From assembly GCA_040767195.1 (NCBI GenBank), contig JAXGPA010000003.1, positions 96,001 to 160,000 of the forward strand: a stretch of 64,000 bases of DNA, given 5' to 3'. Positions 30,110 through 48,442 of the stretch are shown in pieces (position 1 is the first letter of the stretch; the number at the start of each line of letters is the position of its first letter). The position numbers and the translations under genes are program-made. This stretch comes from Syntrophales bacterium. GTDB taxonomy: Bacteria > Desulfobacterota > Syntrophia > Syntrophales > UBA6807. The notes under the pieces were generated by a model, which searched no databases, had not been told where the DNA came from, and worked only from the letters and a program-made list of their open reading frames with translations.

Positions 30110-30829
30110 ATGGCGAAGAAACTGACGAAAAAGGAGTTGAAAGAACCGGACGAGTTTCAGACCTTTTCCATGAAGGTGCTCCAGTACGTGACGGAGAACA
30201 GAAAACGGCTGTATCTCCTCGGCGCCGTCTTTCTCGCCGTGGTCCTGGCGGCGGGAGGCTATGCTTACTACCAGCAGAGCTATGAGGCCAAGGCCCTGGA
30301 GCTTTATACCGAAGCGGCGAATGCCGTTTCCTTTTCCCCCGGCCCTGTTCCGGAAGAGGCCCTGAAACCGTACGAGAGACTGTTGACGGCCTACCCCCGG
30401 AGCGCTGTGGCCCCCCTGGCCCATTATCACCTCGGAAATCTTCACTATGACAGGGATGAATACACCGAGGCTGTCGACGCTTATGAAAGATTCATCAGCA
30501 AAGCTTCGGGACGGGAAAAGGAACGGTTCCTCGTTTCCCTGGCCCATTACGGAGTGGCCTACAGTTACGAAAACCTGAAGGAATACTCGAAAGCCCTGGA
30601 AGCCTTTCAGCGGGCTGCGGAAACAACGGTCGACCCCGCTTTCCAGGCCATGATGGACCGGAACATGGGGCGGGTTTCGGAAGCCATGGGCAATGTTGAA
30701 AAAGCCCGGGAATATTACGAAAAGTCACTGGTCAATGTCAATGACCCGCTCATGGAGCAGGTCATCAGGGTTATTCTGGCGCGACTGGGAGAACAAGCCC
30801 CGGGAAGGAGCGTGGAGAAGCCATCATGA
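30110..30829 (+). CDS. Membrane-anchored TPR protein (YfgM-like)
   Basis: KELKEPDEF N-terminus, single TM helix, TPRs. Confidence 0.8.
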   Translation: MAKKLTKKELKEPDEFQTFSMKVLQYVTENRKRLYLLGAVFLAVVLAAGGYAYYQQSYEAKALELYTEAANAVSFSPGPVPEEALKPYERLLTAYPRSAVAPLAHYHLGNLHYDRDEYTEAVDAYERFISKASGREKERFLVSLAHYGVAYSYENLKEYSKALEAFQRAAETTVDPAFQAMMDRNMGRVSEAMGNVEKAREYYEKSLVNVNDPLMEQVIRVILARLGEQAPGRSVEKPS

Positions 30830-32622
30830 AAGTTCTCATGTCGGGAAACGAAGCCATCGCCCGGGGCGCCTACGAATGCGGCGTCACCTTCGCCGCCGCC
30901 TATCCCGGGACGCCAAGCACGGAAATCACGGAGGAATTCTCGCGATACGAAGGGGTTTACGCCGAGTGGTCGCCCAACGAGAAAGTGGCCCTCGAGGTGG
31001 CCATCGGCGCGGCCCTGGCGGGCGCCAATGCCATGGCCGTCATGAAACATGTCGGTGTCAACGTGGCCGCCGACCCTCTTTTCACGGTGAGCTACACGGG
31101 AACGAACGGCGGGCTCGTCGTGATTTCCGCCGACGACCCCTCGCTCCACAGTTCCCAGAACGAGCAGGACAACCGCAATTACGCGCGCTTCGCCAAGATC
31201 CCCATGATCGAACCTTCCGACAGCGCCGAGGCGAAGGAATTCATCAAGCTGGCCTTCCGGATCAGCCGGGAATTCGACACCCCCGTGTTTCTCCGGTCCA
31301 CCACCCGGCTCTCCCACTCCAAATCGGTGGTGGATCTCGAGGAGGTGACCCGTCCTGAGGAAGTCCGGGAAATCAAGCATCAGCCTCAGAAGTACGTCAT
31401 GGTTCCCGCCAACGCGAGAGTCCGGCGGGTGGTCGTGGAAGAACGCATGAAAAAACTGGCCGCCTTCGCCGAGACCTTCCCGGAAAACCGGATCGAAATG
31501 GGCGACCCGTCCGTCGGCATCATCGCCGCCGGCATGGCCTACAGCTACGCCCGGGAGGCTTTTCCCGGCCATTCCTTCCTCAAGCTCGGCATGATCCACC
31601 CGCTCCCCGTGGGGATGATTCGGAAATTCGCGGAAAAGGTGGACAAGCTTTACGTGGTGGAAGAACTCGACCCCTTCATCGAGGACCAGATCCGGGCCCT
31701 TGGCATTCCCGTGACGGGAAAAGCGGTGTTCCCTTACACCCATGAATTCGACCCCGGGGTCGTTGAAGAGTCCATCACGGGAGAAAAACGGGAGCTGAAG
31801 CCGCTTCCCCCGGTGAAAATCCCCCCCCGGCCCCCGAACCTCTGCCCCGGGTGCCCCCACCGGGGCCTTTTCTACGCCCTGGGAAAAACGAAAACCTTTG
31901 TCGCCGGGGACATCGGGTGCTACACCCTGTCATTCATGAAGCCCCTCGAGGGTCTTCATTCGTGCATCTGCATGGGGGCCAGCATCGGCATGGCCCACGG
32001 CATGAGCAAGGCCCTGGGGGAACCGGGAAAGGGGAAGGTTGTCGGCGTCATCGGCGATTCCACGTTCATCCACTCGGGGATCACGCCCCTTCTGAACACG
32101 GCCTACAACCGGAGCGATGTGGTCATCGTCATCTGCGACAACCGGACCACGGCAATGACGGGAATGCAGCATCACCCGGCAACGGGATACACGCTCCAGG
32201 GGGCGAGGACCCGGGAACTGGATCTTCCCGCCCTGGGCAGGGCGCTGGGCATCGAGAATGTCCGGGTCATCAACCCTCTCGATCTCAAGGAAACCCGGGC
32301 GGTCATGAAGGAGGAACTGGAACGGGAAGGCCCGTCCCTGGTGGTCGCCCAGTCGCCCTGTGCCCTTCTGCTCAGGAAAAAAGGCGGCGAGGAAAAGGCG
32401 TTCCAGGTGGACATGGATGTCTGCACGGGCTGCAAGGTGTGCCTGGGATTGGGCTGCCCCGCCATTTCCTGGAGAAAATTCGACGGGGAACTGGAAAAGA
32501 AAATCACGAAAAAGACGAAAAAACAGGAGGGAATATCCGTCATCGACCAGGATCTGTGCAACGGCTGCACGCTGTGCAGCCAGGTCTGCAAAATCGGCGC
32601 GATCAAGGAGGTGATCTCATGA
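30826..32622 (+). CDS. iorA: Indolepyruvate:ferredoxin oxidoreductase alpha subunit
   Basis: GNEAIARG, YPGTPSTE, MKHVG.NVAAD, SSQNEQD, CPGCPH, GDIGCY, GDSTF.HSG, two C-terminal 4Fe-4S motifs. Confidence 0.95.
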   Translation: MKVLMSGNEAIARGAYECGVTFAAAYPGTPSTEITEEFSRYEGVYAEWSPNEKVALEVAIGAALAGANAMAVMKHVGVNVAADPLFTVSYTGTNGGLVVISADDPSLHSSQNEQDNRNYARFAKIPMIEPSDSAEAKEFIKLAFRISREFDTPVFLRSTTRLSHSKSVVDLEEVTRPEEVREIKHQPQKYVMVPANARVRRVVVEERMKKLAAFAETFPENRIEMGDPSVGIIAAGMAYSYAREAFPGHSFLKLGMIHPLPVGMIRKFAEKVDKLYVVEELDPFIEDQIRALGIPVTGKAVFPYTHEFDPGVVEESITGEKRELKPLPPVKIPPRPPNLCPGCPHRGLFYALGKTKTFVAGDIGCYTLSFMKPLEGLHSCICMGASIGMAHGMSKALGEPGKGKVVGVIGDSTFIHSGITPLLNTAYNRSDVVIVICDNRTTAMTGMQHHPATGYTLQGARTRELDLPALGRALGIENVRVINPLDLKETRAVMKEELEREGPSLVVAQSPCALLLRKKGGEEKAFQVDMDVCTGCKVCLGLGCPAISWRKFDGELEKKITKKTKKQEGISVIDQDLCNGCTLCSQVCKIGAIKEVIS

Positions 32623-33209
32623 CGGACCGGATCCGAAGCATCCTGATCGCCGGCGTGGGCGGGCAGGGCGTCCTGAAGGCGAGCGATATCCTGTCCGCGG
32701 TCATCATAGAGGCGGGACTCGATGTCAAGAAGAGCGAGGTCCATGGAATGGCCCAGCGGGGCGGGTGTGTAACCAGCCACGTCCGCTACGGGAAGCGGGT
32801 TTTTTCACCGTTGGCCCGAAAGGGGGATGTGGATGTCCTTCTCTCCTTCGAGAAGCTGGAAACCCTCCGTTACCTGGATTACCTGAAGGAAGAGGGGAGG
32901 GTGATCATCAACGACCTGGAAGTCTATCCGCCTTCCGTGAACATGGGCGAGGCGGAATACCCGGAAAACGTCATCGACCTGGTGAGGGACAGGGTACATG
33001 CCGTGGAGGTCCTCAATGCCTCCGACACGGCCTCGAAGCTGGGGGATGCCCGAATGGTCAACACCGTCCTTCTGGGTGTCCTTTCCCGTTACATGGAAAT
33101 CCCCGGGGAAATATGGGAAAAGGTGCTTCGGGAAACCTTTTCCCCCAAGGTCGTGGAAAAAAACATCGAGGCCTTTCGCACGGGCCGTGAAAAAAAGGAC
33201 CGTTCTTAA
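32619..33209 (+). CDS. iorB: Indolepyruvate oxidoreductase beta subunit
   Basis: GVGGQG, SEVHGMAQRGG; ATG overlaps the iorA stop. Confidence 0.93.
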   Translation: MTDRIRSILIAGVGGQGVLKASDILSAVIIEAGLDVKKSEVHGMAQRGGCVTSHVRYGKRVFSPLARKGDVDVLLSFEKLETLRYLDYLKEEGRVIINDLEVYPPSVNMGEAEYPENVIDLVRDRVHAVEVLNASDTASKLGDARMVNTVLLGVLSRYMEIPGEIWEKVLRETFSPKVVEKNIEAFRTGREKKDRS

Positions 33210-33233
33210 ATAAGGCGTGTCTCGGGTTTATTC

Positions 33234-34208
33234 ATGAAAGGATCGGAAAAAAGGAAACAGCGGCCAGGGGGTCTGTCCCGGGGGGCAGATTTATCCTTGT
33301 TATTTCTAGCTGTTATCCTTCTTCTCCTGTTTTTTCCATTTCATTCGGTCCCGGCCCAGGACGTTTCACCAGCGGAAAGACAGTTTGCCTTTGCCGAAAG
33401 CCTTTTCGAAGAGAAGGACTATTTCCGGGCCATTACGGAATACAAGAGATTTCTATTTCTTTATCCCGAGGATGAAGGCCGGGTGGAACTTTCACGGTTC
33501 CGAATCGGTGAATGTTACATGAGGGCGGAACGGTGGGAGGAAGCCGTTGCGTCTTTCAATTTTTTTCTCAGACACTATCCGGAAAGCCCCCGGGTGGACG
33601 AGGCGCTCCTCTTCCGCGGCACGGCGGAGAAGAAGCTGAAGCGATTCGATGAAGCCCTGTCCTCTTTTAACGCCGTCGTCGACAGGGATACCCGGAAATA
33701 CCGGGACAGGGGGCTTTATGAAGGGGCCCTGCTTCTCCTGGAGCAGGGGGACTGGCCCCGGGCCCGGGAGCGTTTTCTCGAAGTCAGCGTCGTAAGTCCT
33801 CTTTACAGACCCGCAGGCGTTTACGCCGAAGGACTGGCGAGGGAAGGCGACATTCCCTCTAAATCGCCGGCCGTGGCGGGAACCCTGGCCGCCTTCCTTC
33901 CCGGCGCCGGTCATGTGTATACGGGGCGCCCCAAGGATGGTCTCGTCGCTTTTCTCCTGAACGGCGCGTTTATCTGGGCGGCCATCGAACTGTTCGATGA
34001 CGGAAATGAGGTCGCGGGCGGCGTGGTTACCTTTTTTGAGCTGGGCTGGTACACGGGAAACATCTACAGCGCCGTGAGCAGCGCCCACAAGTACAACCGC
34101 AGAACGAGAGAGGATTTCCTTAAAATTCTCGAGGAAAAAGCCCTCCTGTCAAAGCGTTACGAACATGAAACACATCCTTTGGGCTACGCGCTCGTCATTC
34201 CGTTTTAA
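33234..34208 (+). CDS. TPR protein with C-terminal membrane segment (BamD-like TPRs plus TM2-like region)
   Basis: Signal peptide, AITEYKRF..YP repeats, KSP..A..L...PGAGH.Y. Confidence 0.75.
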   Translation: MKGSEKRKQRPGGLSRGADLSLLFLAVILLLLFFPFHSVPAQDVSPAERQFAFAESLFEEKDYFRAITEYKRFLFLYPEDEGRVELSRFRIGECYMRAERWEEAVASFNFFLRHYPESPRVDEALLFRGTAEKKLKRFDEALSSFNAVVDRDTRKYRDRGLYEGALLLLEQGDWPRARERFLEVSVVSPLYRPAGVYAEGLAREGDIPSKSPAVAGTLAAFLPGAGHVYTGRPKDGLVAFLLNGAFIWAAIELFDDGNEVAGGVVTFFELGWYTGNIYSAVSSAHKYNRRTREDFLKILEEKALLSKRYEHETHPLGYALVIPF

Positions 34209-34641
34209 GTCGATTTTCGTCGCCGCCTGGGTCCTTTGCCTCCTGCTGAACCCACTGCAGGGGATCGCCCGGGCGGAAGGGGGCTTCACGCCCTGGGATT
34301 TCAAGGGCCCGACGGTTTCCGGACAAGAACCTGAAAAGGAAAAAGAACCGGCCGGTTTTTCAGCGAAAATACTCCTTGCGGGGGTATCTTTTTTCACGGA
34401 TCACATCTCCCGCGTCGACGGAGACCGGTGTCCCATGATGCCCACCTGTTCCGCCTACAGTAAGCTGGCTATCCAAAAGCACGGTTTTTTTGTCGGAATC
34501 ATGATGACCGCAGACCGGCTCATACACGAGGCGAACGAGATGGAACAGGCCCCCCTGGTGAGGGTCGGAGACAAAATCCGCTTCTATGACCCCGTGGAAA
34601 ACAACGACTTCTGGTGGACGAGCCCCTCTGCGAAGAAATAA
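34165..34641 (+). CDS. YidD-like membrane protein insertion efficiency factor domain protein
   Basis: IS..DG.RCP..PTCSAY...AI.KHG...G.MMTADRL; N-terminal hydrophobic extension. Confidence 0.75.
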   Translation: MKHILWATRSSFRFKSIFVAAWVLCLLLNPLQGIARAEGGFTPWDFKGPTVSGQEPEKEKEPAGFSAKILLAGVSFFTDHISRVDGDRCPMMPTCSAYSKLAIQKHGFFVGIMMTADRLIHEANEMEQAPLVRVGDKIRFYDPVENNDFWWTSPSAKK

Positions 34642-34756
34642 GAAAATAAACAAGACATATTAGTAGTCTATTCAATATGATATAATATTATGTATAAAGT
34701 ATATTCTAGCTATTTGCGCTCGGGTTTTCAGGGGAACCGGCGACACCTTTCAGGAT

Positions 34757-35692
34757 GTGTCCATCATGTCCGATGACTACTACCGGATTCTCGGCGTGGA
34801 AAAAAACGCCGGCCCGGACGAGATCAAGAAAGCCTACCGGAAACTGGCGCTCCGCTACCATCCCGACAAGAATCCCGGAAACCGGGAAGCGGAAGAAAAG
34901 TTCAAAAAAATTAATGAGGCCTACGCCGTTCTGAGCGATCCGGAAAAACGCGACCAATACAACCGGTTCGGGTCAGAGGCCTTCAGCCGCCGCTTCAGCC
35001 AGCAGGATATCTTCAGAAACTTCGACCTGAACAGGGTCTTCTCGGAAATGGGCCTCGGCGGGTTCGGCCGCCGGTTTTCCACGAGGCGGGGGGCCGGGCA
35101 TGCGGATCCCTTCGGCGACCTTTTTTCCGATTTCATGGGTGGCGGCCCGGGCCACTCCCGGGTGCCTTCCAAGGGGGCGGACCTGACCCATGTCCTCCCC
35201 GTATCACTCGAAGAAGCTTACAGGGGAACAGAGAAGACCGTTCTCGTATCCCGTGGATCGCAACGGGAAGAGATCCGGGTGAAAATCCCAGCCGGCGTGA
35301 CGCCTGGGCAGAAATTGCGGGTGGCCGGCAAGGGGCGGCCCCACCAGGGCGGCGGGCGGTCGGGAGATCTGATCATCCGCGTCGAAATGAAGCCTCACGA
35401 TCTTTTTTCCCGTGTTGAAGATGACGTGTACATCGGTAAGACCATATCCTTTTCCCAGGCCGCCCTGGGTACCGTCGTGCCCGTCGAGACCCTGGAAGGT
35501 GAAACGAAGCGCGTCCGAATCCCCCCGGGCACCCAGGGAAGCACCAAGATCCGAATCAAGGGATACGGCTTCCCAAAGCGTGACAAGTCAGGCCGGGGAG
35601 ACCAGTATATCCGTATTGCCATCGAAATCCCTAAAAAACCAACCCCGGAGCAGGTCGAGCTGATCCGAAAGCTTTCGGAATCCGGATTGTAA
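34757..35692 (+). CDS. DnaJ class-II/CbpA-like co-chaperone (no zinc finger)
   Basis: J domain DYY.ILGV...YHPDKN, G/F-rich linker, C-terminal DnaJ domain. Confidence 0.92.
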
Positions 35693-35741
35693 AACATTCC
35701 GGCAACATGCCTCTTACCCCTCGAAACAGCCTGAAAATATA

Positions 35742-35769
35742 TCGTCTGATAAGATATCTTATGTAAACT
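35742..35769 (+). other. Candidate XerC/XerD dif site
   Basis: 11-6-11 layout TCGTCTGATAA-GATATC-TTATGTAAACT; right arm resembles XerD arm TTATGTTAAAT; intergenic at a gene-orientation convergence. Confidence 0.75.
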
Positions 35770-35959
35770 TTTATTTCGTTTCCAGGGATGTGTTATTTTA
35801 TCTTATCTTAGAAGAGCGCCCCCTCTCCCCCCGAAGACGATCCAATTTTTCGAACCCACATTCTCACAAGTTGTCTTCTTGAAACGGATCTCATTGAAAA
35901 AACATCGGGGAACAAGATGATAGCGTTAATGTTTCATAAGACGGCACGATCTTCCGGTG

Positions 35960-35992
35960 CTTGACTTGGTCCGACCCCGGTTAGAGCCAGCG
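35960..35992 (+). repeat. Isolated TIR plus livF 3'-end fragment; direct repeat of 36301-36343
   Basis: CTTGACTTGGTCCGACCCCGGTTAGAGCCAGCG. Confidence 0.9.
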
Positions 35993-36161
35993 CAGAAGTT
36001 GCTGCAGACGACAATATCTTCCGGCTTCATGGCCGTGTCATGTGGGTCCCCGTCCCCTTTTTTATGAAATGAACGGAGGGATACTATGAGACCTTACAGT
36101 TATAGAAAGGAATCGAAAAAGGAATTTTGGGCCTCTTCCGCTCGTTCAAGAAGCATAGGGA

Positions 36162-36319
36162 GGTCAGACCCTGGCTTAAAGGAGGGTTTAAGGGGTTAAA
36201 AAGGAAAACGACTCTTAAAAGAGGGTTTTGGGGGTCAAAAAAGGCCTTCTAAGGCCAAAAAAGAGCAGAAAAAAGGCGTTATCGTAAAATAAAACAGATA
36301 CTTGACTTGGTCCGACCCC
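36162..36319 (-). mobile_element. Diverged, shortened member of the GGGGTCGGACCAAG TIR element family
   Basis: Exact 14-bp TIR at 36306-36319; internal GCCTTAGAA(C)GGC and TTTAAGCCA shared with other copies; other end GGTCAGACCC. Confidence 0.6.
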
Positions 36320-36331
36320 GGTTAGACCCGG

Positions 36332-37135
36332 TTAGAGCCAGCGTTTGCGGCGCTTGTAGGACTTGACGGTGTCGTAGGATTTCCGTTCGCCGTCGGCCTT
36401 GGTGCCCAGGTAGAACTCGCGGATGTCCGGGTTTTCGCGAAGGTCCTCCGCCCTCCCCTCCATGACGATCTTGCCGTTTTCCATGACATAGCCGAAATGG
36501 GCGATCTGGAGGGCCATCCGGGCGTTCTGCTCCACCAGGATGATGGTCGTTCCCTGCTCCTCGTTGATCCGCCGGATGATGCCGAAGATTTCCTTCACCA
36601 CCAGGGGGGCGAGCCCCAGGGAGGGCTCGTCGAGAAGAAGGAGCGCCGGCCTGGCCATGAGGGCCCGGCCGATGACCATCATCTGGAGTTCGCCGCCGCT
36701 GCAGTAACCGGCCAGGGCCTTCCGCCGCTTCACCAGGGCGGGAAAATAATCGTAGATCATGTCGAGGGTCTCGGCGCCCGGCTTTTTTCGGAGGGCCGCC
36801 GTCCCGACCCGGAGGTTTTCCTCCACCGTCAGGTACTTGAAGGGCTGCCGGCCTTCCAGGACCTGGATGATCCCCTTCCGGGTGATGTCCTCCGGCATGG
36901 CGTTGGCGATGTTCACACCCTCGAAATGTATGGTGCCGTCGGTCACCTTCCCGTTTTCCGGCTTCAGAAGCCCCGAGACGGCCTTCAGGGTCGTTGTCTT
37001 GCCCGACCCGTTGCTCCCCAGGAGGGAAACGATCCGGTTTTTCTCGACGGACAGGGAAACCCCCTTCAGCACCTGGACCACGTCGGAGTAGACGACGCTG
37101 ATGTTGTTCACTTTGAGGAGAACCTGGTCGTTCAT
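36332..37135 (-). CDS. livF: ABC ATPase, LivF-like
   Basis: GSNGSGKTT, SGGE.QM, DEPSLGLAP, VEQN. Confidence 0.85.
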   Translation of the reverse strand: MNDQVLLKVNNISVVYSDVVQVLKGVSLSVEKNRIVSLLGSNGSGKTTTLKAVSGLLKPENGKVTDGTIHFEGVNIANAMPEDITRKGIIQVLEGRQPFKYLTVEENLRVGTAALRKKPGAETLDMIYDYFPALVKRRKALAGYCSGGELQMMVIGRALMARPALLLLDEPSLGLAPLVVKEIFGIIRRINEEQGTTIILVEQNARMALQIAHFGYVMENGKIVMEGRAEDLRENPDIREFYLGTKADGERKSYDTVKSYKRRKRWL

Positions 37136-37145
37136 GGAAGAAACC

Positions 37146-38216
37146 TCAATAGGAGAAAGGCCACAGCCGGAAACTGGACCGGATCACCCGCCAGACCTCG
37201 GCGAGACCCTTGGGCTCGAAAAGGATGAAAAGGACGATGGCGAGCCCGAAGACGAACTGGCGAAGGGCCGCCGGGTTGAGATCCAGGCCCTGGAGGGCCG
37301 GAAGATTGGTCAGAATGTCCGAGAGGGACCGTAGGATTTCGTTCAGGCCGGAGATGAAGACAGCCCCGAAAATCGAACCGGTAACGCTTCCCAGCCCGCC
37401 GATGATCACCATGGCGATGTATTCGATGGAAAGATCGAGGTTGAACGGTTCGGGGGTGATGCTCATGGTGTAGTAGGCCCACAGGGCCCCGGCGATGCCG
37501 GCATAGAAGGAGCTGATACCGAAAGCGAGAAGCTTGTAGGGAAAGATGGGGATCCCCATCCCCTCGGCGGCCCGGTCGTTATCGCGGATCGCCATGAAGG
37601 CCCGGCCGGAACGGGTCCGGAAAAGATTTTTCGCCATCCACGTCATGAGGACGACGAGACCGAAAATAAGGAAGAAAAAGGCCCGGTCTCCCGATATGGA
37701 AAGACCGAAAAGGGACGGCTCGGGAAGGACGATTCCCTGGGTGCCCTGGGTGAGCCCCTCCCACTGGATGAGAACGTATTCGATGATGAATTGGCCCGCC
37801 AGGGTGGCGATGGCCAGGTAAAGCCCCTTCAGGCGGACCGACGGGACCCCGAAAATCATTCCCACGGCAGCGGTAAGGATGCCCGCCATGGGAAGAGAAA
37901 CGAAGAGGGGAAGATTCCAGGAGGTGGCCAGGATGGCCGCCCCGTAGGCCCCGACGCCGATGAAGGCTCCGTGGCCCAGGGAAATCTGGCCCGTAAACCC
38001 GATGAGAATATTCAGTCCCAGAGCCCCGATGGCGGTGATCCCGGTGAGGTTGATCACGTAAAGAAGGTAGGGGGAAGACACGAAGGGCACGACAAGAAAA
38101 AGAAGAGCGAAGCCGCAGAGCATGGCCGCCCGGCCGAAGTCGGTTTCGAAGATCCGTAGCTCTTCCCCGTAAGATTCCCGGTAATTGCCGCAGGGATGAA
38201 ACCGCAACCGTCTCAT
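37146..38216 (-). CDS. livM: ABC permease, LivM-like
   Basis: G.TGQISLGHGAF, RLKGLYLAIATLA, GRAF.AIRD. Confidence 0.85.
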   Translation of the reverse strand: MRRLRFHPCGNYRESYGEELRIFETDFGRAAMLCGFALLFLVVPFVSSPYLLYVINLTGITAIGALGLNILIGFTGQISLGHGAFIGVGAYGAAILATSWNLPLFVSLPMAGILTAAVGMIFGVPSVRLKGLYLAIATLAGQFIIEYVLIQWEGLTQGTQGIVLPEPSLFGLSISGDRAFFFLIFGLVVLMTWMAKNLFRTRSGRAFMAIRDNDRAAEGMGIPIFPYKLLAFGISSFYAGIAGALWAYYTMSITPEPFNLDLSIEYIAMVIIGGLGSVTGSIFGAVFISGLNEILRSLSDILTNLPALQGLDLNPAALRQFVFGLAIVLFILFEPKGLAEVWRVIRSSFRLWPFSY

Positions 38217-38220
38217 GGGC

Positions 38221-39105
38221 TCACACCCTTTCAATTTCGACGAGGCCGAAGAGCCCGTAAGGCCTGACCAGAAGGATGAAAACGAGAACGCCGTACGGGA
38301 CGACATCTTTCAGGGATGGCGAAAGATACCCCCCCGTAAAGGCCTCCAGAAGGCCGATGATGAGGCCGCCCAGGATGGCCCCGCCGATACTTTCAAGGCC
38401 CCCTAAAATCACGACGGGAAAGACCTTGAGGCCGATGGAGGCGAGATCGTGAACGTTGATCCCGTTGATGATTCCCAGGACGACACCGCTCATGGCCGCC
38501 ACCAGGGCGGCGATGGCCCAGGACAGGGCGAAGACCCGGCGGACATTGACGCCCAGGGAGAGGGCCGCCGGCTGGTTGTCCGCCACGGACCGCATGTAGA
38601 TCCCCTGGGAGGAATACTTGAAAAAGAGCCCGAAAAGAACGAGAAAGACGAGGCCGACGGCGGTGGACAGGATGTACACGGGGGGAATGGTGATCCCCGC
38701 CCACTGAAGGGACAGCCAGGACGGAAGAAATTCCGGAAACATGTAGAGGTTGCCGCCGAAGATGAAGAGCATGATCCCCTTGAACATGGCCGCCAGCCCC
38801 ACGGTGAGCATGATGACGAAGATGAGGGATTCCCCGATGAGGGGCCGGAGGAAGACCCTCTCGATGACGAACCCCAGGGCGAAACTGCCCGCGAGGGTCA
38901 GGGGGAAGGCCAGGAGGACGGGGACTTTCGCCCAGGACACGAGGGTCAGAAAAAGGAAGGCGCCGATGGCCACCAGTTCGCCGTGGGCGAAATTCAGGAC
39001 GCTGGAGGACTTGAAGATCATGACAAACCCAAGGGCCGCCAGGCCGTACAGGAAACCGATGCTGATGCCGCTGATGAGAAGCTGAAGAAAGAATTCCATG
39101 GTCAT
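38221..39105 (-). CDS. livH: ABC permease, LivH-like
   Basis: LNFAHGE, ILGGL.S..GA..GG, RPYGLFG. Confidence 0.85.
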   Translation of the reverse strand: MTMEFFLQLLISGISIGFLYGLAALGFVMIFKSSSVLNFAHGELVAIGAFLFLTLVSWAKVPVLLAFPLTLAGSFALGFVIERVFLRPLIGESLIFVIMLTVGLAAMFKGIMLFIFGGNLYMFPEFLPSWLSLQWAGITIPPVYILSTAVGLVFLVLFGLFFKYSSQGIYMRSVADNQPAALSLGVNVRRVFALSWAIAALVAAMSGVVLGIINGINVHDLASIGLKVFPVVILGGLESIGGAILGGLIIGLLEAFTGGYLSPSLKDVVPYGVLVFILLVRPYGLFGLVEIERV

Positions 39106-41060
39106 TCCTCCACATCGTGGATCCGGACGGTCGTCTCGATGACCCCTGTCCGGCCGTCGCGGTAGCGGACCTTGCCCTTGACGGCGATTTCCCGCTTTCC
39201 GGCGTACATGGCCTCGATGATGTCGACGTAAAGCCCGTAGACAAACCGCCTCCTCACCTTCCCCGTTCGTGTCAGTTCCTCGTCGTCGGCGTCGAGGAGC
39301 TTATAGAGAAGGACGAGTTTCCGGATCTTCATGGGACCCGGGAGTTCCCGGTTCACCCGGCGGACCTCCCCGAGTATGAGCGTTTCAACTTCCTCCTGCT
39401 GGGACAGGTCCGTGTAGGTCGTGTAGGGGATCATCCGGTCCTCCGCCCAGTTACCCACGTTGCCCATGTCGATGTTGATGAAGGCGGTGAGATAAGGCCG
39501 GCCCTCGCCGAAGATGACCGCCTCCTGGATGTAGGGGCTGAACTTGAGGCGGGTCTCGATGAAATCGGGGGAAAAGACATTTCCCGCTTTGTCCCGGATG
39601 ACCTCCGCCTTTCTCCCGATAATGACCAGGTGTCCGTCCTCGTTGAGGACACCGGCATCCCCGGTCCGGAGCCAGCCGTTTGAAAAGGCCTCTTCCGTCG
39701 CCTGATAATCCCTCAAGTATCCCTTGAAGACTGTCTCACTTTTTACAAGAACTTCGCTATCTTCCGATATCATGACCTCACTTCCCGGAAGGCTCAGGCC
39801 CACCGTGTCGAGTTTCGGCGAGTGGTCCGGCTGGGCCTGGAAAATCCCCCCCGACTCGGTGAGCCCGTAGCACTGCTTCAGGTTGAGGCCCATGGCGCGG
39901 AAGAAAAAGATGACATCGGGGCTGATGGGGTGACCCCCGGTATAGGCGCTCTGGATCCGTGAACATCCCACCCGGTCGAGGAGCGGCCGGAAAACGGTCT
40001 TGTCCGCCAGAAACAGGGGAAGGCTCCAGGAACGGGGTACCCTCCCCTCTTCCATCCGGACCTTCTCCACCCGCCGTCCCGTCCGTTCCGCCCAGTGGAA
40101 GGCTTTTTTCTTGAGCCACCCCGCGTCGGCCATGCGGACCCGGATCCGGGAGGCCAGATCCTCCCAGAACCGGGAGGAGGTGATCATCACCGACGGGCCG
40201 ATTTCCCGGAGATCCTCGGGGATGGTTTCCGCCGTTTCGGGGAAGTTCATGGTGAACCCGCCGACGAGGGAGACCCCCAGGCCCCACATCTGGTCGACGA
40301 TCCAGGCCGGCGGCGACAACGACACCCAGTCGATGTTTTCCGAGGGGGGGAGGGTGTCGAGCCACTGGAGGCCCATGTGGACGAAGTTCCCATGGGAGAG
40401 CATGGCGAGCTTGGACAGGCCCGTGGTGCCCGAGGTGAGCATCATGACGGCGATGTCGTCCTGCCGGCCCCGCATCACCTCTTTTTCAAAGACCCCGGGA
40501 TGGCTTTCCCCATACTGTTCCCCCAGGGACAGAAGGTCCCGGAAACTGATGAGCCAGGGATCGTCCCGGTAGCCGTCCATGCCCGTGGGGTCCACGTAGA
40601 TTACTTTCTGGACCAGGGGAATCCTGTCCCGGACCTCCAGGAGCTTGTCCACCTGTTCCTGGTCCTGGACGAATACATGGGAGGCCTGGATGCGCTGCAG
40701 GGTCTGGGAGAGTTCCGTCGCCACGGCGGAGGTGAAGAGGTTGACCGTCACACCGCCCAGGGCCTGGACGGCCAGTTCCGAGAAGAGCCACTCGGGGCCG
40801 TTGTCCACGATGAGCCCCGCCGTGTCCTTTCTCCGGAAGCCCAGGGATTTGAGTCCCAGGGCGACTTTTTCGACATAATCCCGGTAGCTTTTCCAGTCAA
40901 CGGCCTGCCAGACACCCCAGGCCTTCTCCCGGATCGCCGGCGGCCCTCCCCTTCCGAGGGCTTCGGCCTGCTTGAGAAGAATCTGGGGAAGGGTGCAGTT
41001 CCTGAGAAAAGACGCCGTTTCTTCGTTCGTTCTGCTTTCTCTGTGAAACAGCCTTCCCAT
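39102..41060 (-). CDS. AMP-dependent acyl-CoA synthetase (long-chain-FACS-like) inside the ABC operon
   Basis: TSGTTGLSK P-loop, YGLTE, GWLRTGD, ELTRTGK; start MGRLFH at 41060. Confidence 0.9.
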   Translation of the reverse strand: MGRLFHRESRTNEETASFLRNCTLPQILLKQAEALGRGGPPAIREKAWGVWQAVDWKSYRDYVEKVALGLKSLGFRRKDTAGLIVDNGPEWLFSELAVQALGGVTVNLFTSAVATELSQTLQRIQASHVFVQDQEQVDKLLEVRDRIPLVQKVIYVDPTGMDGYRDDPWLISFRDLLSLGEQYGESHPGVFEKEVMRGRQDDIAVMMLTSGTTGLSKLAMLSHGNFVHMGLQWLDTLPPSENIDWVSLSPPAWIVDQMWGLGVSLVGGFTMNFPETAETIPEDLREIGPSVMITSSRFWEDLASRIRVRMADAGWLKKKAFHWAERTGRRVEKVRMEEGRVPRSWSLPLFLADKTVFRPLLDRVGCSRIQSAYTGGHPISPDVIFFFRAMGLNLKQCYGLTESGGIFQAQPDHSPKLDTVGLSLPGSEVMISEDSEVLVKSETVFKGYLRDYQATEEAFSNGWLRTGDAGVLNEDGHLVIIGRKAEVIRDKAGNVFSPDFIETRLKFSPYIQEAVIFGEGRPYLTAFINIDMGNVGNWAEDRMIPYTTYTDLSQQEEVETLILGEVRRVNRELPGPMKIRKLVLLYKLLDADDEELTRTGKVRRRFVYGLYVDIIEAMYAGKREIAVKGKVRYRDGRTGVIETTVRIHDVEE

Positions 41061-41062
41061 GT

Positions 41063-41890
41063 TCAGGCCTCCTCCGCCGGCCCCAGGTAGGCCCGGGTCA
41101 CCTCGGGGTTGCCCTGGATCTCCGCCGGGGTCCCCTCGGCGAGCTTTTCCCCGAAATTGAGAACGGCGATCCGCTCGGAAAGGCTCATGACGATGGACAT
41201 GTCGTGTTCCACGAGAACGATGGTCCTCTTCCACACCCCGTGAAGCTCCCGGAGAAACCGAACCATGTCCTCCTTCTCTTCCAGGTTCATCCCCGCAAAG
41301 GGTTCATCCAGGATCAGGAGCTTCGGTTCCAGGGCGAGGGCCCGGCCCAGTTCCACCCGTTTCCGGAGGCCGTAGGGCAGCGATCCTACGAGACGGTGCC
41401 GGATGGACTGCATTTCGAGAAAATCGATGATCTCCTCCACGATCCGCCGGTGGCGCACTTCTTCCCTCCGAACCGACGGAAGGAAGAAGGCGGCGGACAG
41501 GAAATTGTACCCGTAGTGGATGTGCCGGGCCAGGAGAAGATTGGAAAGGACGGACAGGCCCGGGAAAAGCTCGATGTTCTGAAAGGTTCTTCCGATACCC
41601 ACCCGGACGAGTTCATGAGGCGGGTGCCGGGTGACGTTTTTCCCGTTGAAGGAAATGATGCCCTCCTGGGGCCGGTAATAACCGGTGACGCAGTTGAGGA
41701 GGCTTGTCTTGCCCGCCCCGTTGGGACCGATGACGGAGAGGAACTCCCCGGTGCGTACATCGAGGGTCACGTCGTGAACCGCCACGACGCCGCCGAACCG
41801 CAGGGTGAGCCCCTCGATCCGCAGGTCCGCCCGGTCCCGGTCCCGGGAGGTCAATCGGAAGATTTCCGGATCGGCCCGGAACGCTTTCAT
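41063..41890 (-). CDS. livG: ABC ATPase, LivG-like
   Basis: GPNGAGKT, RTFQN, LPYG..KRVE..RAL, DEP.AG, VEHDM. Confidence 0.85.
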   Translation of the reverse strand: MKAFRADPEIFRLTSRDRDRADLRIEGLTLRFGGVVAVHDVTLDVRTGEFLSVIGPNGAGKTSLLNCVTGYYRPQEGIISFNGKNVTRHPPHELVRVGIGRTFQNIELFPGLSVLSNLLLARHIHYGYNFLSAAFFLPSVRREEVRHRRIVEEIIDFLEMQSIRHRLVGSLPYGLRKRVELGRALALEPKLLILDEPFAGMNLEEKEDMVRFLRELHGVWKRTIVLVEHDMSIVMSLSERIAVLNFGEKLAEGTPAEIQGNPEVTRAYLGPAEEA

Positions 41891-43116
41891 TATTTTCCTG
41901 CCTCCTGGAGGAGAACGATCGGTTCCTTCCCGGGTGTGAAGAAATTGGAGAGGGGAACGAACCGGCCGTCTTCGTGGACCCGGACAATCCGGGCCTTGAA
42001 GGAGCCCTCATGGTTATCCTTCGAGTAGGATACGTCGGGAACCAGGCCGCCCATGGACTCGCCCCGGAAAGATTCCAGGGCCTCGTTGATGGTCTCTCTC
42101 GTGACCTTTCCGGAGCGCTCCGCCGCTCTTTGGACGGCTCTTTCCATGATCATGGCGACAGCCACACCCTCCCAGTAGGAAGCATCGAAGGATTCTATGG
42201 TCTTGTAACGCTTCACGAGTTCTTCAAACACCTTGATCCCCGGGGTCCCGTCGGAGGGAAGCCCGCCGGGGAACTGGATGACGAGGCGGTCACCCAGAAG
42301 CCCCTGCCCCATCCTGAAGAAATCGGGGTCCGTGGACGTCCAGGTGCCCAGGAACTGGGGCCGGTACTCGATCCGGTCGGCGCTCTTGAGGGTGGTGATA
42401 ATCGCCGCCGGCAGCATCTGGAGAACCACGTAGTCGGCGCCGCTTTTCTTGAGCCTCAGAAGTTCCGTGGTGAGGTCCACCGTCTTGGCGGGAAACTCCT
42501 CGACGGCCACGATGTCGATCCCGATCTTTTCCGCGTATTCCCGGCTCGGTTTGTGGATGGACCGCCCGTAGGCGTTGTTGTACGTCAGGAGCCCCACCCT
42601 GGCCGGTTCTTTTCCCTGGTGCACCGCCTTGATGTAGTCGAAGATGGCGTAACAGTCAAGCTTGTAGCTCCCGAAGGGCAGATAGATGTAATCGACAGGC
42701 GGTTCGAGAATCTCCCAGCCCGTGGAGAAATTGATCGTGGGAATGCCGTACCGTTGAAGGATCGGCTTCGCCGCCAGGCCTTCGCCGGTGCTCCATGTGG
42801 CCATCATGTCCACGTTTTCCTGGGTGGCGAACTTTCGAACCGCCGCCAGGGCCTCGGGCACCTTGTAGGCCGTATCCACGAGGATCCAGTCGATTCGGCG
42901 GCCCGCGACGCCCCCTTTTACCTCGTTGACATAGGTGAGATAGTCCTGGAATCCCTTGGCGTGATACTGGCCGAAGGTGGAGGCCGGGCCGGTGAGATTG
43001 ATCGCCGCCCCGATCTTCACGGGTTTGGCCTCCTCCGCCCCGGCGGCGACCGCCGACGCGACCAGGAGAATGAGGGAAAGAAGCACGACTCTTTTCATGA
43101 CGTTCCATCCTTTCAT
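41890..43116 (-). CDS. ABC substrate-binding protein (LivJ/K, PBP1 fold)
   Basis: Signal peptide, KIGA..NLTGP, GGV.GR.I, DT.YK. Confidence 0.88.
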   Translation of the reverse strand: MKGWNVMKRVVLLSLILLVASAVAAGAEEAKPVKIGAAINLTGPASTFGQYHAKGFQDYLTYVNEVKGGVAGRRIDWILVDTAYKVPEALAAVRKFATQENVDMMATWSTGEGLAAKPILQRYGIPTINFSTGWEILEPPVDYIYLPFGSYKLDCYAIFDYIKAVHQGKEPARVGLLTYNNAYGRSIHKPSREYAEKIGIDIVAVEEFPAKTVDLTTELLRLKKSGADYVVLQMLPAAIITTLKSADRIEYRPQFLGTWTSTDPDFFRMGQGLLGDRLVIQFPGGLPSDGTPGIKVFEELVKRYKTIESFDASYWEGVAVAMIMERAVQRAAERSGKVTRETINEALESFRGESMGGLVPDVSYSKDNHEGSFKARIVRVHEDGRFVPLSNFFTPGKEPIVLLQEAGK

Positions 43117-43137
43117 GACTGTCCTCCTTCGTTGATG

Positions 43138-43167
43138 AAAAAAGCCGTGGGGCTGGCCACGGCTTTT
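43138..43167 (-). terminator. Second (distal) leader terminator of the ABC operon
   Basis: Minus strand AAAAGCCGTGG-CCAGCC-CCACGGCTTTT followed by TT. Confidence 0.75.
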
Positions 43168-43208
43168 AAAAATAAAAACCGCGGGCGGCTTGGGGTCCGC
43201 CCGCGGCT
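43168..43208 (-). terminator. Attenuator terminator in the ABC operon leader
   Basis: Minus strand AGCCGCGGGCGG-ACCCCAAG-CCGCCCGCGGTT followed by TTTATTTTT. Confidence 0.8.
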
Positions 43209-43238
43209 CTCGATTCCTTTTACGGGACTACGAGCCTG

Positions 43239-43304
43239 TCAGGCAGACCTCCTTCTAAAGCTGAAAAAAAAGCAAAAGATGCCAGACAGTCTCGAACGTT
43301 TCAT
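43239..43304 (-). CDS. Putative Phe-rich attenuator leader peptide MKRSRLSGIFCFFFSFRRRSA
   Basis: ATG AAA CGT TCG AGA CTG TCT GGC ATC TTT TGC TTT TTT TTC AGC TTT AGA AGG AGG TCT GCC TGA; upstream AGGGAG; TTGACA at 43364-43359; terminators follow. Confidence 0.75.
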   Translation of the reverse strand: MKRSRLSGIFCFFFSFRRRSA

Positions 43305-43394
43305 GTGAGATGACTCACTCCCTTTTATGGTTTCTCCCCTATCGGAAGAAAGAGGAAATGTCAACGGAAAAATGACATTCCCCCGCCGGCGGCG

Positions 43395-44267
43395 CTATTT
43401 TCCCGCTTTTCCCGTTTTGCTGCCGAGGTGCCGGAAGAAGGCGTCCTCCGGGCTGACCACCAGGGTGGTGTCCGTTTTCATGGATTTCCGGTAGGCTTCC
43501 AGGCTCCGGATGAATTCGTAAAACTCCGGTTCCTGCCCGTAGGCTTCGGCGTAGATCCGGATCGACTCGCTGTCGCCCTCCCCTTTCATCTTCTCCGCCT
43601 CTTCATAGGCCTTCGCGAGAATGATTTCCCGGTCCCGGTCGGCGGCGGCCTTGATCTTCAGGGACTCTTCCTCTCCCTCGGACCGATACTGCTTGGCCTG
43701 CCGTTCCCGTTCCGCCCGCATCCGCTCGAAAACGGACTTTTCGTTCTGTTCCGGCAGGTCGGCCCGCTTGATCCGGACATCCACCACGTCGATACCGTAG
43801 CTCTTGGCCAGCTCATCGGATTTTTTCGTCACGATGGTCATGATGTCGTTTCGGGTCGTGGAAACGATGTCTTCCATGGTATGCCGGCCCAGTTCCACCC
43901 GGAGCTGGGCGTAGACGATGTCGTCGAGCCGAAGCTGGGCCCCCGTTTCGTTCCGCACCGTCTTGTAGAAAGTAAGAGGCTCCCGGATCCGCCACTTGGC
44001 GTAGTTGTCCACCAGGAGGTTCTTCTTGTCCTTGGTCAGGATTTCCGTCGGTTCCGCGTCGTAAAGAAGGATTCGCTTCTCGAACCTGATGACCTCCTGG
44101 ATGATGGGGATCTTGAAATGGATGCCCGGTCCGTAGGTCCCTTCCAGGGGTTTCCCGAGCTGGATGACGATGGCCTGCTCGGTCTGGTCGACGGTGAAGA
44201 GCGACTGGGAGAGGACGAGGGCCCCGATAAAAAGCAGAACGGTTATGAAAAACGACTTTCCTTTCAT
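43395..44267 (-). CDS. hflC: FtsH protease modulator HflC
   Basis: SPFH domain, TKDKK.L.VD, RM.AERER.A...RSEG, EFY.F.RSLEAY. Confidence 0.95.
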   Translation of the reverse strand: MKGKSFFITVLLFIGALVLSQSLFTVDQTEQAIVIQLGKPLEGTYGPGIHFKIPIIQEVIRFEKRILLYDAEPTEILTKDKKNLLVDNYAKWRIREPLTFYKTVRNETGAQLRLDDIVYAQLRVELGRHTMEDIVSTTRNDIMTIVTKKSDELAKSYGIDVVDVRIKRADLPEQNEKSVFERMRAERERQAKQYRSEGEEESLKIKAAADRDREIILAKAYEEAEKMKGEGDSESIRIYAEAYGQEPEFYEFIRSLEAYRKSMKTDTTLVVSPEDAFFRHLGSKTGKAGK

Positions 44268-44277
44268 GGGGTCCTCC

Positions 44278-45324
44278 TTACGGTTTTTCCGGCGCCTTCG
44301 GATTGACGAGAGGCACGTGGGGTAAAATGTTCCGTCCCAGGCCGGGGTCCATGACGATCTTGTTGATCCCCGGGAGGATCTCCTCCATGGTTTCGATATA
44401 GAGCCGTTTCCGCGTCACGTCCCGGGCCTGCCGGTACTCGGCGAGCATCTGGGTAAAACGGCTGGCGTCCCCGTTGGCCCGGATGATCTTAGCCTGCTTG
44501 TACGCCATGGCCTCATTCACGATCTGGGAGGCCCTTCCCTTGGCCCGGGGAATCAGCTCATTCTGATATCCCTGGGCCTCGTTGATCATCCTGGCCCTGT
44601 CTTCCTTGGCGCTGGCCACGTCCTTGAAGGCCGCCATGACCTGGTCCGGGGGGTGGACGTCCTGAAGCTGCACGGCCACCACCTGGATTCCCGATTCATA
44701 GCCGTCGAGAATTCTCTGGAGACTTACTTTCGTGTCCTGCTGAATCTTGAACTTTTCCGTCGTCAGGATATCGTCGATGTCGTTCTCCCCCACGGTTTCC
44801 CGCATGGCCGCTTCGGCGGCGTCCTTGACGGTTACGTCGGGAAATTTCACGTTGAACAGGAATTTCATGGCATCATTGATCTTGTATTGGACAATGAAGC
44901 CGAGGTTAACGATGTTCTCCCCCTTGGTGAGCATAAGGCTCTCGTCGGGAACGACCCGGCTTCTGCCCGTGGCGCCCTCCCCGATGGTCCTGAAACCGAT
45001 TTCGTATCGCCTCACCTGGGTCACTTTCGGTTTCAGAACCGTTTCGATGGGATAAGGGGCGTGATAGTGAGGCCCCGGAAGGGTGGTCCGAACGGCCTCG
45101 CCGAAGCGCTTGACCACGCCGACTTCATCGGGGGCGACGAAATAAATCCCCGAAAGAAGCCACAGAATGACGATGATGGCGAGGAGCGCCGGAAAGGCGC
45201 CGAATTTCCCCGCCAGGGGCAGGCTGTGAATGGGAAAAGCCTGTTTCAGCTTCCTCAATGTTTCCTCGATATCGGGACGGTTCCGCCCGCCCCAGGGGTT
45301 TCCTTGATCTCCATGCCATGCCAT
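44278..45324 (-). CDS. hflK: FtsH protease modulator HflK
   Basis: MAW...NPWG, MLT..EN, PP..V..AF.DV, VTR.RLY.ETME. Confidence 0.95.
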   Translation of the reverse strand: MAWHGDQGNPWGGRNRPDIEETLRKLKQAFPIHSLPLAGKFGAFPALLAIIVILWLLSGIYFVAPDEVGVVKRFGEAVRTTLPGPHYHAPYPIETVLKPKVTQVRRYEIGFRTIGEGATGRSRVVPDESLMLTKGENIVNLGFIVQYKINDAMKFLFNVKFPDVTVKDAAEAAMRETVGENDIDDILTTEKFKIQQDTKVSLQRILDGYESGIQVVAVQLQDVHPPDQVMAAFKDVASAKEDRARMINEAQGYQNELIPRAKGRASQIVNEAMAYKQAKIIRANGDASRFTQMLAEYRQARDVTRKRLYIETMEEILPGINKIVMDPGLGRNILPHVPLVNPKAPEKP

Positions 45325-45576
45325 GGCTTTTTTCCTCCGGAAGATTTCTAATTGTCGCCTGTCGCCTTGTGAAACGGCGAGAGGTAAGGCGTTTCGTAAC
45401 ACGGGCGCCCCGCCGTGTCAATGCACCCTGTCTGCGACCTTGAAAAAACGACGGGATCATGCTATTTTCATGACGATTCTGAAGATATCTCCCCGACAGT
45501 TTACGGCACGCCGCTTCCATGAACGGCAGGGGACTGGACGGCCGTTCCTGTCCGCCAGAAAGAGAGGGGTTCCGTC

Positions 45577-46947: not shown

Positions 46948-47089
46948 CAGCCCCGCGAAAAAGCCCCGACCGGTGCGCCGCCCCCTGCGGGCCGTCATGG
47001 CGGCACAACGCCGTGCTTCCTTCTCGCATTTCTGAAACCGGTCGCCTTGTCTCCGGCGGTTTTTTCAAGCCGCCCGCCAGGGTCTCCTT

Positions 47090-48412: not shown

Positions 48413-48442
48413 GGTCACCCTCCTCCGTCTTCGGCGCCCGGC

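Follow-up and report, generated by a model that had tools for sequence, protein, structure and literature searches.

We analyzed a 64,000-nucleotide stretch of a Syntrophales genome (the window; C7:96001-160000 of genome G000, 2.39 Mb in 13 contigs) and found on its minus strand an operon in which an ATP-binding cassette (ABC) importer is combined with an acyl-coenzyme A (CoA) ligase behind a phenylalanine (Phe) attenuator. With its leader the operon spans 36332-43304, in the order leader, SBP, livG, ligase, livH, livM, livF, where SBP is a periplasmic substrate-binding protein. Because a Phe-codon attenuator stands before an importer coupled to an intact ligase, supply of Phe from an imported acid is the best single reading of the operon: it would import a Phe-related carboxylic acid (e.g., phenylacetate) and activate it with CoA, and IOR and a transaminase, both encoded elsewhere, would make Phe. 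We hold this reading tentatively, as possible rather than probable. It rests on the Phe signal and on the nature of the module, not on the neighborhood of the operon. New here is the placing of the operon as a branch of a widespread seven-gene module made of an ABC importer, a long ligase and a PaaK-like short ligase. No prior account of the operon or of its control was found in Creative Commons-licensed PMC papers and bioRxiv.

Genes in the window were called by Pfam and NCBIfam profile searches. We compared the operon across 41 genomes of the order (G000 and 40 relatives) and a sample of 301 genomes of the phylum; the genomes are related, so that the co-occurrence counts given below are not independent. 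The flanks compared within Syntrophales came from 20 loci of the relatives and 80 further loci, 100 in all.

The leader contains a 21-codon open reading frame (ORF), in which five Phe codons fall within seven positions (43277-43257). Two terminators follow it, and an eight-nucleotide strand at the end of the ORF is complementary to GGCGGACC, which is part of the 5' arm of terminator 1. We folded the leader RNA with parts of it masked. When nucleotides 1-45 or 1-50 were masked, mimicking a stalled ribosome, GGUCUGCC at the end of the leader ORF paired with the 5' arm of terminator 1. When the mask reached at least nucleotide 57, mimicking a ribosome at the stop codon, the terminator formed. The leader and its two terminators are therefore predicted to let transcription enter the operon when little charged tRNA-Phe is available. 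A Phe-codon ORF, a terminator and an overlapping alternative helix make this a solid case of a predicted attenuator of the leader-peptide type.

The Phe attenuation proposed in an earlier reading made from the sequence alone (the sequence-only reading) was borne out by comparison. A Phe-rich leader was present in all 21 loci first examined, and in 74 of the 78 Syntrophales loci with enough upstream sequence, counting as Phe-rich a leader with at least four Phe in a 9-amino-acid window. The Phe-codon run, GGTCTGCC, its complement and both terminators were conserved in an alignment of 31 loci. Terminator 1 had a compensatory change at alignment columns 202/226 (UA in 15 loci, CG in 12), and pairs in terminator 2 were changed on both sides. 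The eight antiterminator pairs were possible in 99.2% of 248 cells (31 sequences), compared to 25-55% in slid controls. Covariation of the antiterminator was unsupported in these 31 sequences, as 200 of 500 shuffles reached the observed values; its support is invariance, not covariation. An Rfam scan of 33000-46000 at E ≤ 1 returned no matches, Phe_leader included. A genome-wide scan for a mini-ORF with a Phe run followed by a terminator gave seven candidates, and the leader architecture occurred only at this operon. The candidate at C6:344526 was rejected as a Phe leader: its T-run lies 60 nt before a GTPase gene and no terminator is behind it.

Contigs from RNA libraries of two studies, made from anaerobic digesters, cover the operon and iorAB. 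One of them (38911-43277, 2 mismatches) runs from livH through both terminators into the leader, which is compatible with read-through. Such contigs prove that a sequence is present in the libraries, not its level, strand or ends, and DNA carry-over is possible.

The operon has the composition of a HAAT/LIV-type system: an SBP of the Peripla_BP_6/LIVBP fold, two BPD_transp_2 permeases and two ABC ATPases. All of the LivJHMGF equivalog cut-offs in NCBIfam were missed (bits/cut-off: LivF 213/441, LivM 145/366, LivH 119/379, LivG 257/362, SBP 46.5/477). The start of livM is uncertain, as its longest ORF overlaps livH by 86 nt, and the ligase start was set at the ATG at 41060, which is preceded by GGAGGAGG. 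Orthologues of the operon were found in 31 of the 40 Syntrophales relatives, and in all 20 loci of the relatives the six-gene order was intact over the sequence that the contigs cover (16 complete, 4 cut by contig ends). The operon genes are core genes of Syntrophales. Outside Syntrophales, an SBP orthologue was present in 33 of 301 genomes of the phylum sample, and the loci there also kept the six-gene order.

Features of the operon, of the iorAB region and of related loci elsewhere in G000. Plain positions refer to the window.
Feature	Position	Strand	Remarks
Leader ORF, 21 codons	43239..43304	-	MKRSRLSGIFCFFFSFRRRSA; sits between hflC and the SBP gene
Antiterminator 5' strand	43242..43249	-	GGTCTGCC; within the leader ORF end; pairs with 43194-43201 (GGCGGACC)
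Intrinsic terminator 1	43174..43211	-	15-bp stem and T-run
Terminator 2	43138..43167	-	second hairpin and T6; 21 nt before the SBP start codon
SBP, periplasmic substrate-binding protein, 408 aa	41890..43116	-	Peripla_BP_6, E 1.5e-53
livG, LivG-type ABC ATPase	41063..41890	-	ABC_tran and BCA_ABC_TP_C; LivG model 257 bits, below the cut-off of 362
Acyl-CoA (AMP-forming) ligase, 652 aa	39102..41060	-	AMP-binding, E 1.4e-52, and AMP-binding_C_3
livH, LivH-type permease	38221..39105	-	BPD_transp_2
livM, LivM-type permease	37146..38306	-	BPD_transp_2; match begins at residue 81
livF, LivF-type ABC ATPase	36332..37135	-	ABC_tran; LivF model 213 bits, below the cut-off
Terminator-like hairpin and T-run, operon end in G000	36235..36256	-	3' of livF
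TPR gene upstream of iorA	30110-30829	+	overlaps the iorA start by 4 nt; translationally coupled
iorA	30826-32622	+	TIGR03336, 701.1 bits, cut-off 650.9
iorB	32619-33209	+	NF005322, 250.2 bits, cut-off 237
Second TPR gene, after iorB	33234-34208	+	
cbpA, DnaJ/CbpA gene	34757-35692	+	
PaaK-like and ACT-pair genes	L014:6256-9580 (G000:C1)		624 bits
PaaK-like and ACT-pair genes	L015:7377-9400 (G000:C8)		472 bits
Trp leader (EMSWWWRSH) and terminator	G000:C6:53707-53790 (L058:15707-15790)	-	genes run downstream to L058:2198

The ligase gene was found between livG and livH in every complete locus. The protein has an AMP-binding domain and the C-terminal catalytic Lys of ANL acyl-CoA synthetases, and residues T209-K217, Y398-E402, T466-D468, G482-R483 and T599-K601 were invariant in 22 of 22 orthologues; we take these to be the core motifs TSGTxGxxK, YG(LT)E, TGD, GR and TGK. 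Judged by its motifs, the embedded ligase appears to be catalytically intact. The orthologues form one separate group on a long branch, with 100/100 support.

Syntrophales also have 19 paralogous ligase genes in ABC operons with other gene orders, whose SBPs are 19-26% identical. None of the 17 paralogous operon fronts with upstream sequence had an amino-acid-rich leader (2 more were cut by contig ends). We therefore gave up the hypothesis that each amino acid has its own attenuated salvage importer within one family. The ligase gene of the paralogous operons always adjoins an ATPase gene, and a pairing of LivG with the ligase is therefore plausible in advance. A predicted LivG-ligase complex had an ipSAE of 0.55, compared to 0.00 for the best control, with runs agreeing in at least 88% of contacts and a partner pLDDT of at least 85. 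Among solved complexes, 116 of 157 reached the ipSAE pass mark, as did 2 of 215 mismatched pairs. Passes at or below 0.60 included only 18 of the 157 solved complexes but both passing mismatches, and on this calibration such a pass is false more often than true unless the pair was likely from the start. The prediction weakly suggests that the ligase may dock on LivG.

In many Syntrophales loci a second ligase gene follows. Of 49 Syntrophales loci in which 3 kb or more of sequence lies past livF, 25 have a 415-amino-acid PaaK-like gene behind livF in the same orientation, as do 12 of the 20 loci of the relatives. The gap between livF and this short ligase gene is 25-680 nt, and no terminator-like hairpin was present in any of 29 such gaps. 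The closest solved relatives of the short ligase are phenylacetate-CoA ligases (E 1e-41 to 1e-44). The operon-linked short ligases of the relatives scored 167-183 bits against TIGR02155, far below the PaaK cut-off of 646.3. Short-ligase orthologues were present in 23 of 31 operon-bearing relatives, compared to one of nine relatives without the operon, the latter genome being 86% complete. Outside Syntrophales, a short ligase gene was found after livF or before the SBP gene in 8 of 20 loci. In loci without it, livF was followed by a convergent recJ, by GNAT and LPG_synthase_C genes, or by a CoA-transferase gene, none of which is informative about the cargo. The LPG_synthase_C (aminoacyl-tRNA-dependent transferase) gene lies downstream on the same strand in seven Syntrophales loci without the short ligase (L106, L123, L132, L135, L145, L152 and L154; in L154 assigned from ORF sizes only), and a small GNAT-acetyltransferase gene precedes it in L106 and L135, the two loci scanned for that ORF.

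The same seven genes were found on a Deinococcus taeanensis plasmid (NZ_CP083456.1, L181; long ligase 43%, short ligase 32% and SBP 25% identical) and on an Azospirillum brasilense plasmid (NZ_CP059452.1, L183; 38%, 37% and 22%), with the short-ligase identities computed against the third PaaK-like protein of G000. In these two modules the SBP gene is fifth rather than first, in the order livG-lig-livH-livM-SBP-livF. A paralogous operon in a relative (G026:C5; L061:8527-9783) has that order as well; its ligase is 40% identical and is followed by a PaaK-like short ligase that is 40-41% identical. Relatives of the long ligase are encoded in 88 plasmid records (E ≤ 1e-60). One Burkholderia plasmid match (H1) was rejected as a module, being an ordinary five-gene LIV operon without a ligase. 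By these sequence comparisons, the Syntrophales operon is one branch of a seven-gene, two-ligase ABC module present in several phyla, and the SBP is the most variable part of the module across the branches.

Two gene contexts bear on what the module carries. Around the Azospirillum module there are genes for isobutyryl-CoA dehydrogenase, 3-hydroxyisobutyrate dehydrogenase (mmsB), an aldehyde dehydrogenase and isovaleryl-CoA dehydrogenase. These enzymes are steps downstream of an acyl-CoA, and the genes listed for the 18 kb that contain the module include no branched-chain oxo-acid dehydrogenase. In two genomes of one other family (G171 and G231) the operon is followed, on the same strand, by genes for TRAP DctPQM, a 3-hydroxyacyl-CoA dehydrogenase, IorA, IorB, PaaK and a FAD/FeS oxidase, with iorAB-paaK within 4 kb downstream. 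The iorA beside the operon in G171:C1 (L165:11786-13582) is split by an in-frame TAG into ORFs of 313 and 256 amino acids, which may be a sequencing error or a broken gene. Gene context favors an acid over an amino acid as the cargo. Because these contexts combine with the Phe signal and with the aryl-acid route through IOR, the cargo is likely to be a phenylacetate-like acid.

Several observations weigh against this reading of the cargo. The closest solved relative of the SBP is 3lkb from Thermus thermophilus (E 2.3e-39, 27% identity), which is titled 'with bound valine', and 3lkb is also matched, at E 3.9e-142, by the SBP of the two-ligase module in Deinococcus. Because that SBP is a close orthologue of 3lkb, and 3lkb was modelled with valine, the two-ligase module may carry an alpha-amino acid. 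Starvation-induced uptake of a cognate amino acid is a common regulatory design. The sequence-only reading had taken the embedded ligase to be an aryl-acid ligase, and this did not hold up: no aryl-acid model fits. The best of its NCBIfam matches was FadD11 (NF038343; 248.9 bits, cut-off 950), and PaaK TIGR02155 (cut-off 646.3 bits) was not among the best 25 of its 55 matches, so that in sequence the ligase resembles long-chain fatty-acid ligases rather than aryl-acid ligases. Its family in any case says little about the acid, because it is 43% identical to the Deinococcus ligase while the SBPs are only 25% identical. We likewise withdrew the short PaaK-like ligase as evidence for an aryl substrate, because the same gene is generic in the Deinococcus and Azospirillum modules. 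In G000 this gene has moved to another contig, where the orthologue (C6:86039-87280; 60-63% identical) lies behind an ABM-like small gene without a leader. Two further PaaK-like genes in G000, each followed by an ACT-pair gene, could activate phenylacetate without the operon. Finally, most orthologous operons outside Syntrophales lack a Phe leader: only L161 and L164 have a clear one, the short ORFs rich in F/L in L167, L171, L174, L177 and L180 were not convincing as leaders, and the remaining loci had none.

These findings bear most directly on the possibility that the operon is simply an importer of Phe, or of aromatic amino acids, that is induced by Phe starvation, with L-Phe, phenylpyruvate or phenyllactate as the SBP ligand and the ligases in another role. 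Uptake of the cognate amino acid would be just as consistent with the attenuator. The predicted SBP structure (pLDDT 85.7) had 3lkb as its best match, as in the sequence search (Foldseek TM 0.81/0.86), the Deinococcus module has the close 3lkb orthologue, and the genes near the Azospirillum module also belong to valine and leucine catabolism. According to its title, 4dqd, which has the same fold and comes from Rhodopseudomonas palustris, binds 3-phenylpyruvate. All of the top 50 fold matches had the LIVBP fold, and binders of amino acids, pyroglutamate, fatty acids, aromatic acids and phenylpyruvate scored alike behind 3LKB, and therefore the fold search is without power to decide the ligand. 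Ligand specificity does not transfer at 27% identity, and valine is hard to distinguish from 2-oxoisovalerate in electron density. At E ≤ 1e-5 the SBP had no match among LivJ or LivK entries. Two canonical five-gene LIV systems, neither with a ligase, are already present in G000, and their SBPs strongly match amino-acid binders (3td9, E 1e-111; LivJ/LivK, E 1e-38 to 1e-48). A Phe importer would also leave two conserved ligases unexplained, the long one encoded in every complete locus and with intact motifs in 22 of 22 orthologues, and the Azospirillum cluster begins at acyl-CoAs with no oxo-acid dehydrogenase listed nearby. On balance, we consider an importer of Phe itself unlikely, though a serious alternative.

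The match to FadD11 could instead mean that the operon serves catabolism, importing and activating fatty or organic acids in general in the manner of the Syntrophales paralogues, with a cargo unrelated to Phe and the Phe leader a secondary tuning. The 19 paralogous ligase genes in ABC operons of the same order fit this, as does 4n03, a fatty-acid binding protein that was third by fold, and so do the many orthologous operons outside Syntrophales that have no Phe leader. However, the leader is kept in nearly all Syntrophales loci and is missing from the paralogous operon fronts, the orthologues are a separate, long-branched group, and a Phe-starvation signal would make no apparent sense for fatty-acid catabolism. 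We therefore regard this explanation as improbable.

The sequence-only reading had placed the operon about 3 kb from iorAB and read the two together. The gene order and the distance were confirmed: 3122 nt separate the end of iorB from the livF stop, and a TPR gene and cbpA lie between the two convergent units. If the operon and the adjoining iorAB formed one functional cluster, the embedded ligase would replace a missing phenylacetate-CoA ligase. Besides the 3.1-kb gap, this view can draw on ten relatives in which iorA is on the same contig as the ligase gene, 14-23 kb away, and on the two genomes of another family with iorAB-paaK no more than 4 kb behind the operon on the same strand. The orientation is convergent, however, with two unrelated genes and terminators in between, and the fetched flanks contained iorA or iorB in 0 of the 20 relatives' loci and 0 of the 80 further Syntrophales loci, that is, in none of the 100. 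Outside Syntrophales, iorAB was in the flanks of 2 of 20 loci, both from one family. In a genome of the same genus, the operon and iorA are on different contigs.

The order of genes around iorAB also speaks against a cluster. The plus strand of the window reads recG, hom, apgM, TPR, iorA, iorB, TPR, cbpA, and the block PFK-orf-purN-purM-recG-hom-apgM-TPR-iorA-iorB-TPR-cbpA is collinear between G000 and a genome of a different family (G015). The operon is located past the PFK end of this block in G015 but, inverted, past the cbpA end in G000. Thus iorAB is part of a housekeeping-type syntenic block and not of the operon, and a local rearrangement of the genome best accounts for the 3-kb spacing in G000. 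Because the block is collinear between these genomes, the spacing of 14-23 kb in the ten relatives reflects general synteny. The functional link drawn from proximity is largely refuted by this comparison, and we consider a single operon-iorAB cluster very improbable. The same conservation of TPR-iorA-iorB-TPR-cbpA in G015 suggests that the TPR proteins belong with IOR.

Co-occurrence adds little to the salvage reading. IorA was present in 33 of 33 phylum genomes with an SBP orthologue and in 201 of the 268 others, and within the order its score exceeded the family cut-off in 30 of the 32 genomes that have the operon and in 3 of the 9 that lack it. The co-occurrence is thus there, but it is a weak test, because IorA occurs in 234 of the 301 genomes anyway and the relatives are not independent.

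The statement that G000 has no phenylacetate-CoA ligase stands for the window, where no PaaK-like gene lies beside iorAB, but not for the genome, which has three PaaK-like genes. This count also weighs against the embedded ligase as a replacement. TIGR02155 matches in G000 scored 623.7, 472.5, 171.9 and 48.8 bits (cut-off 646.3). A check of the genome for pheA and paaK found pheA, the two PaaK-like genes with ACT genes and the third PaaK-like gene. The PaaK-like gene on C1 and an MFS transporter gene are divergently oriented and may form a separate unit for uptake and activation of aryl acids. A second IorAB-like pair (L016:7192-10923; G000:C1:364-368 kb) reached 578 bits with the IorA model, below its cut-off, and is preceded by an FrhB/FdhB-like gene.

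pheA was present in 39 of the 41 genomes of the order. In G000 it encodes CM/PDT and lies within a 14-gene supraoperon, trpEGDCF-aroG-aroB-pheA-aroD-aroE-aroA-aroK-aroC-tyrA (aroG, DAHP synthase; aroB, DHQ synthase), behind a leader with Trp codons (WWW), not Phe codons. Because pheA and a full shikimate cluster are present, any salvage of Phe would be supplementary.

What remains of the aryl-acid salvage first proposed is the Phe attenuator and the importer coupled to an intact ligase; the iorAB link and the aryl type of the ligase were lost, and the nearest kin of the SBP, 3lkb, was solved with valine. In the salvage reading that we prefer, a ribosome stalled at the Phe codons would free GGUCUGCC to pair with the 5' arm of terminator 1, and transcription would read through. 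The SBP would capture the solute, and LivHM and LivGF would import it. The embedded ligase, which may act docked on the ATPase LivG, would form the CoA thioester, and most relatives would add the PaaK-like short ligase encoded after livF. IOR would then reductively carboxylate arylacetyl-CoA to arylpyruvate, and transamination of the arylpyruvate would give Phe.

A broader proposal, which we regard as doubtful in its entirety, is that the seven-gene module is a widespread, undescribed machine that traps the amino-acid-derived acids of fermenters (isobutyrate, isovalerate, phenylacetate) as CoA thioesters at the transporter. Its Syntrophales branch would handle phenylacetate under an attenuator that senses Phe-tRNA, and Phe starvation would recycle a neighbor's waste acid to Phe via IOR. 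If the cargo is phenylacetate, syntrophs in methanogenic communities would be making a costly amino acid anew out of a by-product of fermentation, an attenuator that responds to an amino acid would govern scavenging rather than synthesis, and a two-ligase ABC module in at least three phyla would gain a function. If the cargo is Phe itself, the question shifts to the role of two conserved ligases inside an amino-acid importer.

On the 5' side of the operon, the window contains (43395-48418) hflK-hflC, a gene with a weak mannosyl-3-phosphoglycerate-synthase-like match and a glycerate-kinase-like gene (DUF4147/MOFRL). These genes are syntenic with the operon throughout the family.

The operon can be compared with several known systems. 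It shares with LIV-I of Escherichia coli (LivJ/LivK-LivHMGF, of the HAAT type) one Peripla_BP_6 SBP, two BPD_transp_2 permeases and two ATPases, one of them with a BCA_ABC_TP_C tail. It differs in the 652-amino-acid ligase gene between livG and livH, in the Phe-codon leader and in having no LivJ/LivK match at E ≤ 1e-5. The leader-peptide attenuators pheL-pheA and pheM-pheST of enterobacteria likewise combine a short ORF with a Phe run, a terminator and an overlapping alternative helix. In the Syntrophales operon, however, the target is an uptake and ligase operon, there are two tandem terminators, and Rfam Phe_leader does not match.

Methanococcus maripaludis makes aromatic amino acids from aryl acids through IOR (Porat et al., as cited in PMC4162585); the passages on this route mention neither an uptake system nor a regulator. 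Compared by gene presence with the route as described there, G000 likewise has IorAB, PaaK-like ligases and coexisting de novo synthesis, but a conserved linkage of uptake, ligase and iorAB was not found in the Syntrophales loci. The module of Desulfococcus multivorans for phenylacetate and phenylpyruvate, as given in PMC5109826, comprises TRAP DctPQM, a 3-hydroxyacyl-CoA dehydrogenase, IorAB, CoA ligases and a lactate-dehydrogenase-like oxidase, and the same kind of gene set is found immediately behind the orthologous operon in G171 and G231. The D. multivorans module is catabolic, and the supplement rows searched (PMC5109826) list no LIV-type ABC genes with it; G000 has no such cluster beside the operon. 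FadD4 of D. multivorans (518 amino acids; PMC5109826) was rejected as kin of the embedded ligase, being of a different ligase type. The two-ligase modules of Deinococcus and Azospirillum are annotated only generically and have the same seven gene types as the Syntrophales module.

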